Virus record (IMG/VR): IMGVR_UViG_3300019926_000010
Span: 873 to 64,872 of that record
Direction: 5' to 3' (one strand)
DNA length: 64,000 nucleotides
Source: a virus
In this document: positions 42,600 through 63,335 of the stretch, one piece after another
Layout of the letters: the number at the start of each line of letters is the position of its first letter
Numbering within the stretch: the stretch's first letter is position 1
Notes under the pieces: model-generated
Told to the model about the DNA's origin: nothing
The model's input: the letters and a program-made list of their open reading frames with translations, nothing else
The model's database searches: none
Translations under genes and position numbers: made by a program

Positions 42600-42643
42600 G
42601 GTCGCTGGACGGAATCGAACCGTCTCAGAAGGCCATTAGCGAC
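42600..42643 (-). ncRNA. Mini-tRNA element
   Basis: GTCGCT-AATGGCCTTCTGA-GACGG-TTCGATT-CCGTC-C-AGCGAC. Confidence 0.7.
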
Positions 42644-43218: not shown

Positions 43219-44163
43219 TCACGCGCCTGCTTGTTTGCCGCCTTGTTCCATCCCACGTCGTCGTATCTTGTCACGGAGTTCATTGGCACACCGTCTGTTG
43301 ATCTGCTTCCGGAACTGGTGTAAGTCCAGTACCGCGTCTTCGTCCAGTAGAAGAGACGCGCCCTCTTCCTCACCGATGTCTCGGAGAACGCGCTGTGGTA
43401 GATCCTCCATGAGGGGCATTTCGAGTTTGCGGCCCTCGTCATTGACCATCTTCTCGATGGTTTTTTCAATGCGACGGTTAGATCCGGTGTACTTGTCAGC
43501 GAGTCTCGATTCGTCGCTGGGTCCACCGTTATCCGTACCGGCCTTGGCCGATTCGTGCTTCTCAGCGAACGCTTCGGTAATGAGTTTCGCCCGTGTGTCA
43601 CACGAAGCGTTCTTCATCACGACGCCTTCAGCAATTCCATCGCGGAACTGACTCTCGATCTCCTCGTAGTCGCTGGGGTTGATGTTTTCAGCGTCGTCAA
43701 CGTCGAGAACGGGGGCAACCGGCAGGTTACCGGCCTGGAACACGTCCATAGCTTCGCCGTGACGAAGCCATCCGCTCATGTCGTTTGGCCCGTCTTCGAT
43801 GAACACGTCGAAACCGAGGAACCGTGGCATCTCTTCCCACGGATAATCCAGCGTGTGAGAGTGCATCGACTCCCCGAACAGAGTCATGTCACCCAGGTTG
43901 TCAGCCAGATTGTAGAGCGTGTGCGCGTCGATCTCCCGAGACACCCACTCGATAGTGGGCCGGAAGTTCTTCGGCACATCCTCGTTCGGAACCGTCGAGT
44001 AGTCCAGATTTCGGGACCCGAAGGTGATCTCACGCGCGTCCGAGTCTACATGGATACGGAAGTTCGCTCCGTCCATCTTCTCGTGAACAACGACCTCTCC
44101 GTCGGAGAATAGTCCGTCTGTGTCCGGATGACCGAGCCGACGGATCTTCGGGTATTTCTTCAC
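43219..44163 (-). CDS. ATP-dependent RNA ligase (Rnl2-like)
   Basis: Motif I EKMDGAN, FGE, FDV, EGVVMK and RAK; the GTG start overlaps the upstream TGA. Confidence 0.88.
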   Translation of the reverse strand: MKKYPKIRRLGHPDTDGLFSDGEVVVHEKMDGANFRIHVDSDAREITFGSRNLDYSTVPNEDVPKNFRPTIEWVSREIDAHTLYNLADNLGDMTLFGESMHSHTLDYPWEEMPRFLGFDVFIEDGPNDMSGWLRHGEAMDVFQAGNLPVAPVLDVDDAENINPSDYEEIESQFRDGIAEGVVMKNASCDTRAKLITEAFAEKHESAKAGTDNGGPSDESRLADKYTGSNRRIEKTIEKMVNDEGRKLEMPLMEDLPQRVLRDIGEEEGASLLLDEDAVLDLHQFRKQINRRCANELRDKIRRRGMEQGGKQAGA

Positions 44164-44561
44164 TGCCACGTCGGGACCGGCGTTCCACCAGTCCACTTGA
44201 CACCGATCTCGTAGTCGATCACGTCTTCGATGTCTTCGATGTTCTCGATTCCGAACGAATCGAGGAAGTCGTAGAGCTGTGCATCCTCATCCTCCAGCCC
44301 GTCCGGAAGATCGAACTCCAGGTTGGGGATGTCGTAATCATCAGCACCGCCCACGTTGACGGGGATGACGACCTTGTATTCGCCCGAGAACTCACCACCC
44401 CGGCCAACCATCCGCGGTTCACCGAGCCACGCCTTCTCAGGGAACTGCTTCCCGGATAGCTCGTACACCGCTTCCGTGATCGCGGCGGGGCCGAGGCTCG
44501 TTTGTTCATCGCTCGATCCTCCGAAGCCGAAGAACTGACGGAGTTTGGATAGCAGAGACAT
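44160..44561 (-). CDS. Hypothetical protein
   Basis: ATG at 44561 (MSLLSKLRQFFGF...) inside the track ORF. Confidence 0.6.
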   Translation of the reverse strand: MSLLSKLRQFFGFGGSSDEQTSLGPAAITEAVYELSGKQFPEKAWLGEPRMVGRGGEFSGEYKVVIPVNVGGADDYDIPNLEFDLPDGLEDEDAQLYDFLDSFGIENIEDIEDVIDYEIGVKWTGGTPVPTWQ

Positions 44562-44606: not shown

Positions 44607-44675
44607 CACGGACTCCGGGATTTGAACCCGAGCAACCCCGTTCAGGGGCACTCTCCCAGGCTGAGTTAAGTCCGT
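44607..44675 (-). tRNA. Atypical tRNA, Phe(GAA)-like
   Basis: 7-bp acceptor ACGGACT/AGTCCGT, D-arm TAACTCAGCCTGGGAGAGT and T-loop TTCAAAT; short anticodon stem around CTGAACG. Confidence 0.5.
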
Positions 44676-44791
44676 CAATTTATTGAGCGCCAACGTTTCC
44701 TTCCCTATTCAGGGCGTGTCACACGGCGCTGATCTCACCTATTGCAATTGAGTCCCAAGAACTCTCGTTCAAGGTCTGAGGCCTAAGGTGA

Positions 44792-44867
44792 AGCCGGAAG
44801 CGGGACTTAGCACCCGCGTCTGTAACATCACAAGCTACCAATCTTATCTGTATTAGACTATTCCGGC
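44792..44867 (-). tRNA. Atypical tRNA, His(GTG)-like
   Basis: Acceptor GCCGGAA/TTCCGGC, anticodon stem GTAGC/GTTAC with loop TTGTGAT, T-stem GCGGG/CCCGC with a non-canonical 8-nt loop. Confidence 0.5.
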
Positions 44868-44868
44868 A

Positions 44869-44954
44869 TGGGAACGGGAGGATTTGAACGCTCCAAGGGC
44901 TTACGCCCAGTTTTTCTCACCCGTGCGTTCCAAGGTCCACGGGACGACGTTCCC
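44869..44954 (-). tRNA. Degenerate long-variable-arm tRNA-like element
   Basis: Acceptor GGGAACG/CGTTCCC, T-loop TTCAAAT and variable hairpin GGGC-GTAA-GCCC; anticodon arm unclear. Confidence 0.35.
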
Positions 44955-45149: not shown

Positions 45150-45194
45150 CGCCTCAACGAGGACTCGAACCCCGATTAATCAACCTGATGAGAC
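45150..45194 (-). ncRNA. Mini-tRNA element overlapping the endonuclease stop
   Basis: GTCTCA-TCAGGTTGATTAAT-CGGGG-TTCGAGT-CCTCG-T-TGAGGC. Confidence 0.6.
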
Positions 45195-45637
45195 AATCTA
45201 TTTTCAATTAACAATTCTTCAGAAATATTTGCTCGTTCTTTATTTCGAGGGTCAATTTGAGATTTAGGATTCATATTTATACTCATTTGACTTTTTGGGG
45301 CTTCATCGAATGGAATCCAGTATATCTCACTACTATATGGATTTCTTATCGCGTAAACGTCTATTTCATTTTCTGAATATTCTTTTCTATTAACTTCTCC
45401 ATCAGGTCCGTAATTTTGATTTCGTAACTCTACCCTTACAGAACCTTCAACTGTTGACTTAGGTTTGAAAGCAGTTTTACATTGTACCTTTAATAATTCA
45501 TTGCTTAAATCTGCAATTAAATCATATCGTTCATTATCTCCTACGGGTTCAGAGACGCTATATCCAAGTTTAAGAAGTTTTACCACTATTTTGTTTTCTG
45601 TTATAGTTCCTTGTCTAAGAGAACTTTCTCCCGACAT
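45176..45637 (-). CDS. PD-(D/E)xK endonuclease (homing-endonuclease-like, I-Ssp6803I type)
   Basis: G-x3-E...GYSVSEP...RYDLIAD...KVQCKT; AT-rich relative to the genome. Confidence 0.8.
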   Translation of the reverse strand: MSGESSLRQGTITENKIVVKLLKLGYSVSEPVGDNERYDLIADLSNELLKVQCKTAFKPKSTVEGSVRVELRNQNYGPDGEVNRKEYSENEIDVYAIRNPYSSEIYWIPFDEAPKSQMSINMNPKSQIDPRNKERANISEELLIENRLSHQVD

Positions 45638-45639
45638 TA

Positions 45640-45713
45640 CGTCTGGTCAAGGAGTCGAACCTCGCACAACACCGTTAACAGCGGCGTGCCCCCACCAAGG
45701 GGGCCTACCAGAC
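45640..45713 (-). tRNA. tRNA-Asn(GTT)
   Basis: Full cloverleaf: acceptor GTCTGGT/ACCAGAC, anticodon stem CGCCG/CGGTG with loop CTGTTAA, T-arm CGAGG-TTCGACT-CCTTG. Confidence 0.85.
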
Positions 45714-45979
45714 ACGATGCCGGGATGAAAACACCCGGCGATTATGACCGCTACCCAAACCAGCACGCCTCTTTCGAGGCAATAGAGGCCGCCAGGCCCC
45801 GTACTGGGGAATCTGTCGCTGGCAGATCCCCCTCAAATTGCCCTACTCGCTGAAGGGATGCTATCAGGCATCCACTCCACACGAGTAAACGTGCCCCGAC
45901 ACCATAAAGGTGCCGATTGAACAATGTGGTATGCTTTGATTAATGCGATGAACTATACAGACTGTTTATATAAGGGGGA

Positions 45980-45985
45980 TTTATA
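45980..45985 (+). promoter_or_regulatory. Putative TATA box of a leaderless transcript
   Basis: TTTATA about 26 nt upstream of ATG 46011; a second TTTATATAA lies at 45965. Confidence 0.45.
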
Positions 45986-48203: not shown

Positions 48204-48695
48204 TCACTCGGTTAACTCATTGAGCGGCGGTTTCACTGGATGGTTCCGGTCCTTTTCGCATACTGATTCTCGGTAATCCATGAACTCCGACATGAATTGA
48301 TCGTGGTGTTGGTCGAGAACGAAGTCTTCGAGGAGTTCAGTGTAATCTGTCTCCGGATCTCGACCACGTTTTCCGATGCACTTGTGGAAGAGCATGGAGT
48401 CGAACCACACTGCTTCCTCGAATTTTCCATCTTCCACGAGTTCCCACCCTTCATAGCCCGGTGATTCTAACCTCGGATAGCGACTGCTACCGGGCCTCAT
48501 GGTGAGATATACCTGATCGGCTACCTCGAATCGCATTGTGAAGTCCCAATCAGTACCGACTGAAAGTTCGTCGTCAACGTCGAGAAGGGCGGCGGCCTCG
48601 TCCAAGATGTCTTCGGTGATGTGGACGTACCGTTTATTTAGACCACTCGTCGTGGTGTAGAAGTGATACTCGTCGTGGGTGAATTTGTCATTCAT
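48204..48695 (-). CDS. Hypothetical protein
   Basis: ATG at 48695 (MNDKFTH) inside the track ORF. Confidence 0.6.
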   Translation of the reverse strand: MNDKFTHDEYHFYTTTSGLNKRYVHITEDILDEAAALLDVDDELSVGTDWDFTMRFEVADQVYLTMRPGSSRYPRLESPGYEGWELVEDGKFEEAVWFDSMLFHKCIGKRGRDPETDYTELLEDFVLDQHHDQFMSEFMDYRESVCEKDRNHPVKPPLNELTE

Positions 48696-55791: not shown

Positions 55792-55835
55792 TGCCCTTCC
55801 ACGGAATCGAACCGCGGAGCCGCCACTAAGGGTCA
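55792..55835 (-). ncRNA. Mini-tRNA element
   Basis: CCCTT-AGTGGCGGCTC-CGCGG-TTCGATT-CCGTG-G-AAGGG. Confidence 0.65.
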
Positions 55836-56583: not shown

Positions 56584-59389
56584 TATCACCGTATCCGAGG
56601 AGTGCCACCTTCTCCCGAACATCGTCTTCTTCCATCTTGGTGAAGTCCATGTTCAGGTCGTGGAGGGCCATCATCAACTCCTCAACGTGGCCCTTGTACC
56701 CCTTGTTGTAGGACAGACTGTCGATGACGTTGTAGATTTCAGAGTCATCGTCCCAGTTCGGGGTGTCGATAAGTCGCTGGTAGTGGCTCTCACCCTTCTT
56801 TAGTGAGTAAGAGTTGAACTTCTTGGAGTGAAGCCGACCGTACTTGAACGCGATTATGCTCTTCCGTCCAACGTATTCCTTGTCAGCGACGAACTCGATC
56901 TTGTCCATCGCCTTCCTGTCGGCAACAGCCCACAACACGTCGGGCTGTTCTCCGTCGTCAAAGTGCATCTGACCGAGTAGGTCTTCCGTGAAGTATTCCC
57001 GAATCTCGGATCGTTCGTCGGTAATCAGCTTCTTGCCTTCGATGTTCGTGACCTGAGCGAAGATTACCAGTCGATCATCCTCGATCATATCCACGAGCGT
57101 CATTGCACCGTCTTCGGTGGCGATGACCGAGTTGTAGGAACGGGCTTTGTATTCGTCAGGAAGGAACACAGCCGCACAGTCTTTCAGAGCCTCGTATTCC
57201 TCGTTGGAACAGGACGCAATTGCGGCGTTGTCAGCGAAGTCGTAGTTGTCCGAGATGTTCCTTTCACCCGACCGAGGGAAGAGAACTAACTCGTTTCGTC
57301 GGTGGATTCCGTTTCCATCTTCACCGAACCGATCTCTGACTTTCTTCACCGGATACCGAGCGTCGATCTTGTGACCGCTCTCGGTTCGGATCTTGAGGAC
57401 GTGATCTTCCACGTCGTCCGGCTTCCCCCGAGACTTCTTATCGGTCCCATCGGATCGTTTGTTTTTGCTGGCTATTGCATCCGGGATGTCCCACTCGTCG
57501 TCCTCGTCGTCATCACGACGGTACGGAACGTTCGGAAGCCGCTTGAACCCGTACAGATCCTCGTAAGTTTCGTACTTGTGGGCACCGGATACCACGATGA
57601 TCTCGCTGTCATCGTAGGTGTTCCAGAGCGTCTTTGCCCGGTCCATGAACTTCCCACCGGTCGAAGCCGCCATGTAGATATTCGATCCAGTGGAGTCAGC
57701 GAGCAGATCACCGAGCTTTTTCTCACTGCGTCCCTTCTGTCGTGATACGTTGCATCCGTTTCGGGGAGCGTGGGAAAACTCGGTGAACAGACCGTGGATC
57801 TTCTGGTAGGTTTCGGGAATATCGTAGCTCCCGATCACTTCGATGGGATCGTCGTCGGTGTACTTCTTAATACACTGACATCGGTACTCCCATTCAGAAA
57901 TAGTCATTCCTACATCATCATCGTAATTTCGGAACTCGTTGTCCTCCTTCTGAAGGAACCGAGTGAACCGTTTCAGGTTTTTGAACACTCCGTGAGGACC
58001 ATGCCTCTTGAGAACTTTCCGGAAAGTCTTCCACTCTCCGGGGTTATCCTGCGGTGCTGAGAGAACGTCTTCCGGACCGTCGATGTTTTCCAGAAACTCA
58101 GCGGCTACCTCAAGCTCGCGCTCTTTCACGACCTCCTTGATGTGCTTGAAGAACCTCGTGTTTGCAGTGTCCTTCTGGAGTCGGTCCCGGTCGGCGGTCG
58201 GCTGGGGGAGGGGAACGTCGTCCTCGTGGAGGTCAACATCCTCCTCTTTCTTCCCCCTATTCGGACCTTCAATGATAAGTCCCTGTTCGTTGTGGATCTG
58301 CACCTTGACGTTCCAGAGTGAGCGAACACTAACCCGCGTGTTCCGCTCAATGGGCATACTAACCAGGAAACAGTCCGGGTCATCGTAGCCGCTCGGAACA
58401 TCAGGTCCCGCAACGATGGTGTACTCACCGGGTCGGTTCACTACAATCGGCGGGTCGTTGTAGAGTTCTTCCAGCGTGTTTCCGCCGTACTCTTCCTCGG
58501 TGATCGTTTCACCGTCTCGGTACTCCTTATAGAGAAGCGGAACCCGGAGAGCCTGACTGTATTTCGCCAGCCAACCTTGGAACTTGTTCAAGTCGATCCC
58601 ACCCTCAGATTCTTCGAGGACCGGGATCTCAAATCGGGTTCCACGGAAGTTCTCAGGAATGTCGTTCGGAATCTCTTCAAGTCCTGAGAGATCCGTCAGG
58701 AAGGCGATGCCCTCCTTGTCAATGTCCGGAGCGTCAACCTTCCGGGTCTTTGTCCATCCCGTGATGTCACCGTACTTCCCGGCGGGCTTCACGAACGTCA
58801 GGGCACCGAGGCCCATCTTCCCACCGGTATCAGCATCGTAGGACACACCCGACATTCCCGTCGTGTTGAACGCTTTGTCCAACTCGTGGGCAGTCATCCC
58901 GATGCCGGGGTCCTGGTAGACGATCTTCCGTTCGTCTCTGTGAAGCTCGACCTCGATGGTCGGGTTGTAACCGAGAGAACTGGCGGCCTCCATGATTTCA
59001 CTCAGCGGTCGAGGAAGCTCGATAATTCGACCATCCTCGGTCATCACGTCCCGAGTGAGCCACTCCTCACCGTAATCCGGGTGGTGTGAAATGAGCAACT
59101 TCGCCGCTCGAATAACCGCAGTCTCGGCGTTCTGGTTGTACTCTCGGGGGAACGCCTCGTCACTGCTGTAGATCAGCTCTGATAGATGCTCGTGAATGGC
59201 ATCCTCAGCGATGTCTCGCTTACTTTTGCCCGTCGAACCCGTTTCTTGGGCCAACGCGCTGTTTTCGTCTATGACGTTTAATTCGTCCTTTTCAACTGCC
59301 GATGCCGACGACGTGATCTCACCGAACTCCTGACTGCTCGGCGTAGTCGGCACTTTTCCGTTCTGGTTTTGGGTGTCCTGTTGGGACAT
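56573..59389 (-). CDS. GHKL (Hsp90-like) ATPase-domain protein, rIIA-like
   Basis: REYNQNA (N box), QDPGIGM (G1), GKMGLG (G2) and GTRFEIPV (G3), followed by a long C-terminal region. Confidence 0.75.
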   Translation of the reverse strand: MSQQDTQNQNGKVPTTPSSQEFGEITSSASAVEKDELNVIDENSALAQETGSTGKSKRDIAEDAIHEHLSELIYSSDEAFPREYNQNAETAVIRAAKLLISHHPDYGEEWLTRDVMTEDGRIIELPRPLSEIMEAASSLGYNPTIEVELHRDERKIVYQDPGIGMTAHELDKAFNTTGMSGVSYDADTGGKMGLGALTFVKPAGKYGDITGWTKTRKVDAPDIDKEGIAFLTDLSGLEEIPNDIPENFRGTRFEIPVLEESEGGIDLNKFQGWLAKYSQALRVPLLYKEYRDGETITEEEYGGNTLEELYNDPPIVVNRPGEYTIVAGPDVPSGYDDPDCFLVSMPIERNTRVSVRSLWNVKVQIHNEQGLIIEGPNRGKKEEDVDLHEDDVPLPQPTADRDRLQKDTANTRFFKHIKEVVKERELEVAAEFLENIDGPEDVLSAPQDNPGEWKTFRKVLKRHGPHGVFKNLKRFTRFLQKEDNEFRNYDDDVGMTISEWEYRCQCIKKYTDDDPIEVIGSYDIPETYQKIHGLFTEFSHAPRNGCNVSRQKGRSEKKLGDLLADSTGSNIYMAASTGGKFMDRAKTLWNTYDDSEIIVVSGAHKYETYEDLYGFKRLPNVPYRRDDDEDDEWDIPDAIASKNKRSDGTDKKSRGKPDDVEDHVLKIRTESGHKIDARYPVKKVRDRFGEDGNGIHRRNELVLFPRSGERNISDNYDFADNAAIASCSNEEYEALKDCAAVFLPDEYKARSYNSVIATEDGAMTLVDMIEDDRLVIFAQVTNIEGKKLITDERSEIREYFTEDLLGQMHFDDGEQPDVLWAVADRKAMDKIEFVADKEYVGRKSIIAFKYGRLHSKKFNSYSLKKGESHYQRLIDTPNWDDDSEIYNVIDSLSYNKGYKGHVEELMMALHDLNMDFTKMEEDDVREKVALLGYGDNDA

Positions 59390-59414: not shown

Positions 59415-59463
59415 AACGTCACCGGGGAGTCGAACCCCGAACTTCCGCCTATCGGGTGACGTT
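59415..59463 (-). ncRNA. Mini-tRNA element
   Basis: AACGTCAC-CCGATAGGCGGAAGTT-CGGGG-TTCGACT-CCCCG-GTGACGTT. Confidence 0.7.
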
Positions 59464-61241: not shown

Positions 61242-61307
61242 TGGAGTCCACGGGACTCGAACCCGCTCGCGTCTCGCTTACCTGATTCGGTCGGCCAACC
61301 GGACTCC
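61242..61307 (-). ncRNA. tRNA-like element with intact top half
   Basis: 7-bp acceptor GGAGTCC/GGACTCC+A and T-arm GCGGG-TTCGAGT-CCCGT; the 34-nt middle has no valid anticodon arm. Confidence 0.65.
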
Positions 61308-61434: not shown

Positions 61435-61475
61435 TACTACGCCGAGGAATCGAACCTCGAAATACCATTCGTAGC
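61435..61475 (-). ncRNA. Mini-tRNA element
   Basis: GCTACG-AATGGTATTT-CGAGG-TTCGATT-CCTCG-G-CGTAGT. Confidence 0.7.
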
Positions 61476-62026: not shown

Positions 62027-62067
62027 CGAAAGGTGCCCTCCGGGTATGTTAGCCCTTCATTGAGCAG

Positions 62068-62113
62068 TAACTCACGGAGAATCGAACTCCGAAAACGTCA
62101 CCAGACTGAGTTA
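62068..62113 (-). ncRNA. Mini-tRNA element
   Basis: TAACTCA-GTCTGGTGACGTTTT-CGGAG-TTCGATT-CTCCG-TGAGTTA. Confidence 0.7.
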
Positions 62114-62975: not shown

Positions 62976-63007
62976 CCCCTCAAACCACTGCGGTTATCAT
63001 CGGGAAG

Positions 63008-63048
63008 GCCGAGGGAGGGAATCGAACCCTCACTTAATCCAACTCGGG
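63008..63048 (-). ncRNA. Mini-tRNA element
   Basis: CCGAG-TTGGATTAAGT-GAGGG-TTCGATT-CCCTC-C-CTCGG. Confidence 0.65.
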
Positions 63049-63335
63049 GGTTACTCTGATGATTTTCTAATAGCCTCAGCCAAATCTCGGGCTTCTTCGA
63101 TGGTATCAGAGGCCATTAGAGCCTTTGTAGCGGCACAAGCGTTGTTCATACCGTTTTCATTAGGGTGGTCCATTAGAAAGCGTAGGGTTCGTCGTGATCG
63201 ACACTGTTGTCCTCCGGTTCTACCGGGTGACCACAGTTTTCGCAGGTGTTCGTCTCACTATCTCCCTCAAGCTGATCTTGAGCGGCACCGCAATTCTGAC
63301 AGAAACCAGTCTGTGCTGAAGGTGATTTTTTCATG

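Follow-up and report, generated by a model that had tools for sequence, protein, structure and literature searches.

The sequence analyzed here, termed the window, is a stretch of 64,000 nt that covers nearly all of a 65.4-kb IMG/VR record, estimated to be ∼88% complete. The virus is a Hafunaviridae-like haloarchaeal tailed virus. On the minus strand of the window, an open reading frame (ORF) lies between a complete tRNA-Asn gene and a reduced tRNA-like element, or mini-tRNA. From 5′ to 3′ on that strand, the locus comprises the following features:

45714..45985 (−): predicted untranslated leader and candidate promoter region, common to a divergent plus-strand gene
45640..45713 (−): tRNA-Asn(GTT), read by hand; the ARAGORN call is 45639-45714(−)
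45638..45639 (−): spacer TA from discriminator to ATG, read directly; the equivalent in Halorubrum sodomense tailed virus 4 (HSTV-4) is CT, also 2 nt
45176..45637 (−): predicted free-standing PD-(D/E)XK homing endonuclease gene (I-Ssp6803I / PDDEXK_5), 153 aa, from Pfam and PDB matches
45150..45194 (−): mini-tRNA, 45 nt, from motif scan, enrichment and comparison with HSTV-4
44607..44954 (−): tRNA cluster downstream of the cassette, from ARAGORN, Rfam and motif scan, with the next three features
44869-44954 (−): tRNA-like element, 86 nt, with a 7-bp acceptor stem and a weak T stem
44792-44867 (−): tRNA-His, from ARAGORN and Rfam
44607-44675 (−): tRNA-like element, 69 nt, scoring 41.9 bits with the Rfam tRNA model and having a shortened anticodon loop

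The two atypical tRNA-like genes of the downstream cluster, 44869-44954(−) and 44607-44675(−), flank tRNA-His, with an RNA-ligase-like gene (43219-44196) a short distance downstream of both.

An earlier note on this DNA had described the ORF as homing-endonuclease-like, AT-rich, starting 2 nt past the tRNA-Asn discriminator and ending within the mini-tRNA, and each of these readings held up. The ORF matches Pfam PF11645 (PDDEXK_5) with an E value of 1.2e-28 and 100.3 bits (cut-off 26.1), over profile positions 5-129 of 138, and residues 8-111 match the I-Ssp6803I structure (PDB 2OST_A) with an E value of 6.2e-9. The active-site motif is kept, and the YDL...VQxKT core (Y38-D39-L40, V51-Q52-x-K54-T55) is invariant among seven homologues. 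The product is a predicted I-Ssp6803I-type PD-(D/E)XK endonuclease, belonging to a family with 8,622 cluster representatives at E ≤ 0.001. The Pfam match was confirmed at genome level, where the ORF is single-copy. Its ATG at 45637 follows the discriminator (G45640) and the dinucleotide TA, and there can be no earlier start, because an in-frame TGA (45647-45649) lies inside the tRNA. Its TAA (45176-45178) is contained in the mini-tRNA (45194-45150(−)). G+C content is 32.5% in the ORF, lower than in the flanks (49-52%) and the window as a whole (52.5%), and exactly 19 G+C fall in the 60 nt from 45241.

Manual reading of tRNA-Asn(GTT) identifies an acceptor stem of 7 bp (45713-45641) and G45640 as the discriminator, together with a normal D arm, a T arm and CTGTTAA as the anticodon loop. 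The fold is a cloverleaf of −37.3 kcal/mol (z = −3.6). With Rfam, the tRNA model was outscored at this position by a retained tRNA-Sec match (26.5 bits), and given this weak score we regard it as an atypical tRNA. The gene is the first of the minus-strand unit in the window, and its position matches that of tRNA-Asn in HSTV-4. We also looked for a 5′ remnant of a displaced tRNA at 45714-45800; this segment contains hairpins only; it does not fold like a tRNA and is not repeated at any other place in the window.

The mini-tRNA consists of a 6-bp acceptor stem (GTCTCA/TGAGGC), a 13-nt linker that includes the TAA, a T arm with a 5-bp stem and the canonical T loop TTCGAGT, and discriminator G73. 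It thus has what is looked for in a t-element, an acceptor stem with a canonical-T-loop mimic on the transcribed strand. The 5′ acceptor strand coincides with ORF codons for S-H. Homologous C-terminal codons form this strand in the two viruses, namely TTG-CCG-AGT-CAG in HSTV-4 and TTG-TCT-CAT-CAG in the window. By folding alone, the mini-tRNA was no better than shuffles (z = −1.0 for the window and −0.25 for HSTV-4), which speaks against a role that is structural only. As these z-scores are not significant, the case for the element rests on motif, enrichment and comparison.

Enrichment is pronounced. Elements combining an acceptor stem with a perfect T arm number 8 in the window, compared to 0.045 expected from Markov simulations, and T-loop motifs number 18, compared to 2.6 expected. 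Elsewhere on the minus strand there is a dispersed family of 41-74-nt elements that have an acceptor stem and a T arm and lack an anticodon arm, most of them in gene gaps:

42600-42643 (−): mini-tRNA-type element, acceptor stem and T arm
48385-48435 (−): mini-tRNA-type element, acceptor stem and T arm
55792-55835 (−): mini-tRNA-type element, acceptor stem and T arm; conserved in HSTV-4
59415-59462 (−): mini-tRNA-type element, acceptor stem and T arm
61242-61307 (−): mini-tRNA-type element, acceptor stem and T arm
61435-61475 (−): mini-tRNA-type element, acceptor stem and T arm
62067-62113 (−): mini-tRNA-type element, acceptor stem and T arm
63007-63080 (−): mini-tRNA-type element, acceptor stem and T arm

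The counterpart of 55792-55835(−) in HSTV-4 lies at ∼71998-72040(−) (L012), and the two share the linker AGYGGCGGCTC and the acceptor CCCTT/AAGGG. Further unannotated mini-tRNAs are found in HSTV-4 at ∼70895-70937 and ∼56622-56669. Unexplained "tRNA-like sequences" have been mentioned for viruses of the HF1 group (PMC7230728).

A presence/absence polymorphism at tRNA-Asn in haloferacalesviruses

The nearest homologue of the ORF is gp71 of HSTV-4, which is equal in length and 52% identical. Copies of gp71 are also found in HRTV-15, HRTV-24 and HJTV-3 (Hafunaviridae, Haloferacalesvirus). The layout in HSTV-4 is that of the window, with tRNA-Asn, 2 nt (CT) and the ATG, and then a 48-nt mini-tRNA overlapping the end of the ORF. 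Here too the ORF deviates in composition (45% versus 57% G+C). The earlier note had viewed the ORF as a selfish gene. It is not fixed among relatives, as the HSTV-4 homologue shows clean presence or absence at the tRNA-Asn locus. Four haloferacalesviruses carry it, whereas at least 29 have the tRNA-Asn locus without it, including HF1, HF2, HRTV-5, HRTV-8, HRTV-21, HJTV-2 and HSTV-3. Presence and absence at one locus, by which a free-standing homing gene is recognized, is seen with flanks that are 98-100% identical, and an empty site with near-identical flanks occurs in HRTV-21, HJTV-2 and HSTV-3.

Alignment of HSTV-4 with HRTV-21 gave the following:

921 nt upstream: 3 differences
tRNA positions ∼15-48: 14 differences, followed by ∼500 extra nt in HSTV-4
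532 nt downstream: 0 differences

This comparison places the borders of the cassette, ∼535 nt in length, in the D loop of tRNA-Asn and the T stem of the mini-tRNA. Relative to the empty allele, tRNA-Asn of HSTV-4 keeps its acceptor, D and T arms, and the anticodon stem differs in each of its five pairs (CCTGA/TCAGG to ACGAG/CTCGT), as does the variable loop. In the mini-tRNA of HSTV-4, the terminal 26 nt are identical to the 3′ end of the resident tRNA-Asn and are followed by the flank of the empty allele. The ORF is hence bracketed by a 26-nt direct repeat of the tRNA 3′ end. Given this identity and the shared flank, it follows that the 3′ half of the mini-tRNA corresponds to the displaced 3′ end of the invaded tRNA gene.

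We interpret the mini-tRNA as a second copy of tRNA-Asn, without D and anticodon arms, whose 3′ part would be a remnant of the target gene. Two observations lead to this reading of a gutted copy. In HSTV-4, the mini-tRNA ends in the resident tRNA's own 3′ 26 nt; and in each virus, its acceptor resembles that of the virus's own tRNA-Asn (GCCGAG versus GCCGAGG in HSTV-4; GTCTCA versus GTCTGG in the window). In the window, the 3′ strand of the mini-tRNA matches the upstream tRNA-Asn weakly beyond the universal T loop (7/12 positions). The earlier note had taken the mini-tRNA to be a punctuation mark. An acceptor/T-arm element is indeed there, but there is more to it, since its 3′ half comes from the displaced end of the tRNA-Asn that was the target; the origin of the element as a second tRNA-Asn copy had been missed.

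When the mini-tRNAs of the window and HSTV-4 are compared, 21 of 22 pair cells are standard, with four compensatory double changes, and pairing falls to 36-64% with a sliding partner. In a covariation control, weak because it draws on two sequences only, 40 of 500 shuffles reach the observed pairing value. A metagenome scan with the two-sequence alignment yielded homologues of 28-35% identity only, which are useful for assessing tRNA association rather than mini-tRNA covariation. The paired strands could have been inherited from real tRNA-Asn copies and not kept by selection.

These elements raise the question of whether the mini-tRNA is simply one member of a genome-wide t-element family, serving as an RNA-processing signal only, with the endonuclease gene having landed between the tRNA and a pre-existing t-element. 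Such a view would accommodate the eight acceptor-stem/T-arm elements on the coding strand of the window, the three or more additional ones in HSTV-4, the element conserved between the two viruses (window 55792-55835; HSTV-4 ∼72000) and the pairing kept via double changes. However, the HSTV-4-type empty allele has a complete tRNA-Asn where the 3′ half of the mini-tRNA now sits, and no separate t-element; nor would this view predict that each mini-tRNA acceptor resembles the tRNA-Asn acceptor of its own virus. We consider it unlikely as a full account. The two readings are compatible, in that a tRNA remnant can be kept as a t-element.

Partial duplications of tRNA genes are a hallmark of integrase-mediated integration, and the repeated tRNA 3′ end might on that basis be an att-type duplication left by an integrase-mediated element. 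Viruses of the HF1 group do have a partial tRNA-Thr attP (PMC7230728). The ∼500-nt insert contains the endonuclease ORF alone, and no integrase. Moreover, the left junction falls within a tRNA whose anticodon arm is recoded, unlike a simple att crossover. An att origin is thus extremely improbable.

The locus is probably best explained as a free-standing homing cassette of the I-Ssp6803I (PDDEXK_5) type, residing in a tRNA-Asn gene that heads a long minus-strand transcription unit. The enzyme would cut the anticodon-arm region of an insert-free tRNA-Asn gene in a co-infecting relative, and repair from the insert-carrying genome would copy the cassette, with the 5′ part of the tRNA and the tRNA 3′ remnant serving as homology arms. 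The donor would be immune, because one of its tRNA-Asn copies is recoded and the other has the site deleted. In HSTV-4, the first copy is recoded in the anticodon-arm region and the second, the mini-tRNA, is without this region entirely. Because the same segment is recoded upstream and deleted downstream, the anticodon arm is likely the recognition site, and the altered target in the carrier allele is consistent with self-immunity. The upstream tRNA-Asn is presumably the cassette-linked copy, resistant to cutting.

Another nuclease gene is present in the same part of the HSTV-4 genome. Located ∼3 kb from the tRNA-Asn cassette, gp78 (L003 473-958) encodes a LAGLIDADG endonuclease, so this region has more than one selfish nuclease.

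The earlier note had looked to relatives without the ORF to define the insertion site. That approach succeeded for HSTV-4 versus HRTV-21; for the lineage of the window itself, DNA, protein-seeded and exact-pattern searches turned up no empty allele. A DNA search of the phage collection gave no match. Viral contigs scanned with protein seeds (the divergent Zn-finger gene, the RNA ligase and the gp74-like gene) gave distant matches or known haloferacalesviruses only, and the 3′ ends of the window's mini-tRNA and tRNA-Asn, used as exact patterns, gave none. As no close relative was found, the empty site, cassette borders, target and recoding are demonstrated for the HSTV-4 homologue only. The empty site, borders and recoding would carry over to the window by homology of layout. 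Proteins flanking the cassette are 36-39% identical between HSTV-4-type viruses and the window virus, and gene order differs; HSTV-4-type viruses belong to another genus or family.

PDDEXK_5 genes and tRNA genes in other viruses

The earlier note described I-Ssp6803I-type endonucleases as associated with tRNA genes, and the association turns out to be broader than was described there. Among 17 independent contexts from bacterial and archaeal viruses, 14 have a tRNA within ∼320 nt of the PDDEXK_5 homologue. The immediate neighbor is tRNA-Asn in 6 of the 17 (the window, HSTV-4, L010, L017, L025 and Pseudoalteromonas phage J2-1). In 4 of the 17, the stop codon of the ORF falls inside the next complete tRNA:

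L013/L014: ORF stop overlaps tRNA-Asp
L015: ORF stop overlaps tRNA-Ile
L017: ORF stop overlaps tRNA-Asn, and is formed by tRNA U8-A9-G10
Pectobacterium phage My1: ORF stop overlaps tRNA-Ile

These data argue that the tRNA link is real and extends beyond a single intron-borne enzyme. They point to a general habit of PDDEXK_5 genes, which is to be nested between viral tRNA genes with the stop codon in the next tRNA.

Some members of the family depart from the single-domain form, and have two, three or four PDDEXK_5 repeats in a single chain, or tandem genes. Examples are P0006 (557 aa), P0009/P0011/P0015 (∼383-403 aa), P0007/P0008 (∼281-294 aa) and L009 168-1099. I-Ssp6803I acts as a tetramer, which makes these repeat chains notable.

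Gutted or apparently split tRNA genes are seen in two of the other contexts. In L017 (541-595), a truncated tRNA-like copy adjoins the PDDEXK_5 ORF and an intact tRNA-Asn. This copy comprises a 5′ acceptor strand, a D arm and a partial anticodon arm fused to the 3′ acceptor strand, and has no T arm. The metagenomic contig L013 (150-730) has what looks like a tRNA, its anticodon loop containing GTT, that is split around the PDDEXK_5 ORF, the order being the tRNA 5′ half (∼150-190), the ORF, a complete tRNA-Asp, and a matching T arm and 3′ acceptor strand (∼700-728). This may be a tRNA-Asn gene broken by a cassette of the same kind.

The split tRNA of L013 would also suit a reading in which the ORF is intron-encoded, the true tRNA being joined by splicing from a 5′ part before the ORF and a 3′ stump after it, and I-Ssp6803I itself lies in a tRNA intron. 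In the window, though, nothing is missing from the upstream tRNA-Asn, which has a T arm, a 3′ acceptor strand and a G73 of its own. ARAGORN, allowing introns of up to 800 nt, called none, and no group I or other Rfam intron was found at E ≤ 1. We regard an intron at this locus as very improbable.

The distribution of these genes also bears on whether the ORF could be a domesticated viral nuclease, for example resolvase-like or directed against the host, that is vertically inherited and immobile. PD-(D/E)XK folds have many functions, I-Ssp6803I resembles Hjc resolvases (PMC3384342), and the same position in two distant viruses could mean ancestry. On the other hand, a resident gene of this sort would not be expected to show a patchy distribution within one genus between near-identical flanks, a deviant composition, or a target tRNA that is recoded or deleted in carriers, and homologues are scattered among the tRNA clusters of unrelated phages. 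Collectively, these observations make domestication quite unlikely.

Expression and RNA processing

By the earlier note, a promoter belonging to the ORF would speak against expression through tRNA processing. The layout leaves no room for one: the spacer is 2 nt, the reading frame is closed by the stop within the tRNA, and no AT-rich box is found in the spacer or within tRNA-Asn. AT-rich boxes are present upstream of tRNA-Asn, at 45965-45973, 45979-45985 and 45904-45908. Of the TATA-like boxes, those closest to tRNA-Asn precede it by 165-270 nt, in the region common to the divergent gene. In HF2, tRNA-Asn is preceded at a distance of 31 nt by the intergenic repeat IR3 (annotation of L007), whose promoter gives rise to the 18-kb transcript F52 (PMC8707807). 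Based on these data, this virus group has a long polycistronic RNA with tRNA-Asn as its first gene.

Processing of such a transcript could release the endonuclease message. In Haloferax, RNase P and tRNase Z free an RNA that has a t-element on either side, and they do so in vivo (PMC4326828). The ORF, itself promoterless, would be read through from the tRNA promoter, and cleavage by tRNase Z past G73 of tRNA-Asn would leave a 2-nt leader on its mRNA. That the ORF is co-transcribed with tRNA-Asn and its mRNA then freed by tRNase Z, with a leader of 2 nt, is a reasonable inference, and a plausible one, because space for a promoter is absent and because of the precedents of F52 in HF2 and of the t-elements in Haloferax. 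The conserved 2-nt spacing in two diverged cassettes lends it further support.

At the other end, about as probably as not, the mini-tRNA would act as a t-element, setting the endonuclease message apart from the genes that follow. One complication is that an RNase P cut at the 5′ end of the mini-tRNA would take off the last five codons of the ORF together with the stop. Loss of the stop sits awkwardly with a simple role in 3′-end formation, and the mini-tRNA could instead limit expression rather than finish the endonuclease message. More simply, the mini-tRNA may just retain, ahead of the downstream genes, the tRNase Z site of the empty allele.

We more tentatively suggest that the cassette rides host tRNA processing at both ends. 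It would gain a near-leaderless mRNA at the 5′ end and make its own t-element at the 3′ end, where the last codons of the ORF would pair with the tRNA 3′ end that the insertion had displaced. The amount of endonuclease would then be gated by which enzyme acts, RNase P or tRNase Z, because RNase P cutting would remove the stop codon. This two-ended scheme is doubtful at present. If true, the same logic would apply to PDDEXK_5 genes with the stop in the next tRNA, in bacterial and archaeal viruses.

Relation to known systems

To our knowledge, PD-(D/E)XK homing endonucleases have been known mainly from one intron-borne cyanobacterial enzyme. The family of that enzyme, I-Ssp6803I, is now seen as a free-standing gene in archaeal viruses. 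The interest of the locus comes chiefly from the cultured viruses with and without the insert, which offer a natural system for studying the spread and expression of a selfish gene. As such isolates exist, homing, target recognition and self-immunity through tRNA recoding are directly testable in an archaeal virus–host system. The layout furthermore provides a built-in test for punctuation of haloarchaeal viral polycistronic transcripts by tRNAs and tRNA-like elements.

The window ORF has in common with I-Ssp6803I of Synechocystis (PDB 2OST, PF11645) the family, the YDL...VQxK motif, a size of ∼150 aa and the link to a tRNA gene. The target of I-Ssp6803I is a 23-bp pseudo-palindrome (PMC3384342), and a tRNA anticodon stem-loop is a pseudo-palindromic target of the kind that I-Ssp6803I recognizes. 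The two differ in setting. The window ORF is free-standing (no intron was detected), comes from an archaeal virus and adjoins tRNA-Asn, sitting between a complete tRNA and a gutted copy, whereas I-Ssp6803I belongs to a cyanobacterial chromosome and is inside an anticodon loop.

In gene organization, the window cassette is akin to SegB of phage T4, a free-standing GIY-YIG homing endonuclease whose gene lies in the T4 tRNA gene cluster, and which biases inheritance in favor of the tRNA region during mixed infection (PMC2330249). Both are free-standing endonuclease genes among viral tRNA genes, and the mode of spread of SegB is the one we propose for the window cassette. SegB, however, belongs to an unrelated nuclease family and to a bacterial phage, and we found no report of a flanking partial tRNA duplication or recoded tRNA for it (PMC2330249).

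Closest to the window ORF are gp71 of HSTV-4 and its copies, which are annotated in GenBank as 'PD-(D/E)XK nuclease' and agree with it in position, spacing and mini-tRNA overlap. The tRNA-Asn sequence of HSTV-4-type viruses is very different from that of the window. In the papers on these viruses that we consulted, we found no mention of homing or of tRNA-Asn disruption.

The mini-tRNA itself finds its nearest parallel in the t-elements of Haloferax volcanii (PMC4326828) and of plant mitochondria (PMC1920247), which are cut by RNase P and tRNase Z and thereby define the ends of neighboring RNAs. Like these, it is an acceptor stem and a T arm inside a longer transcript. Unlike them, it is viral, it overlaps the stop codon of an mRNA, and it would derive from a tRNA gene disrupted by a selfish element.
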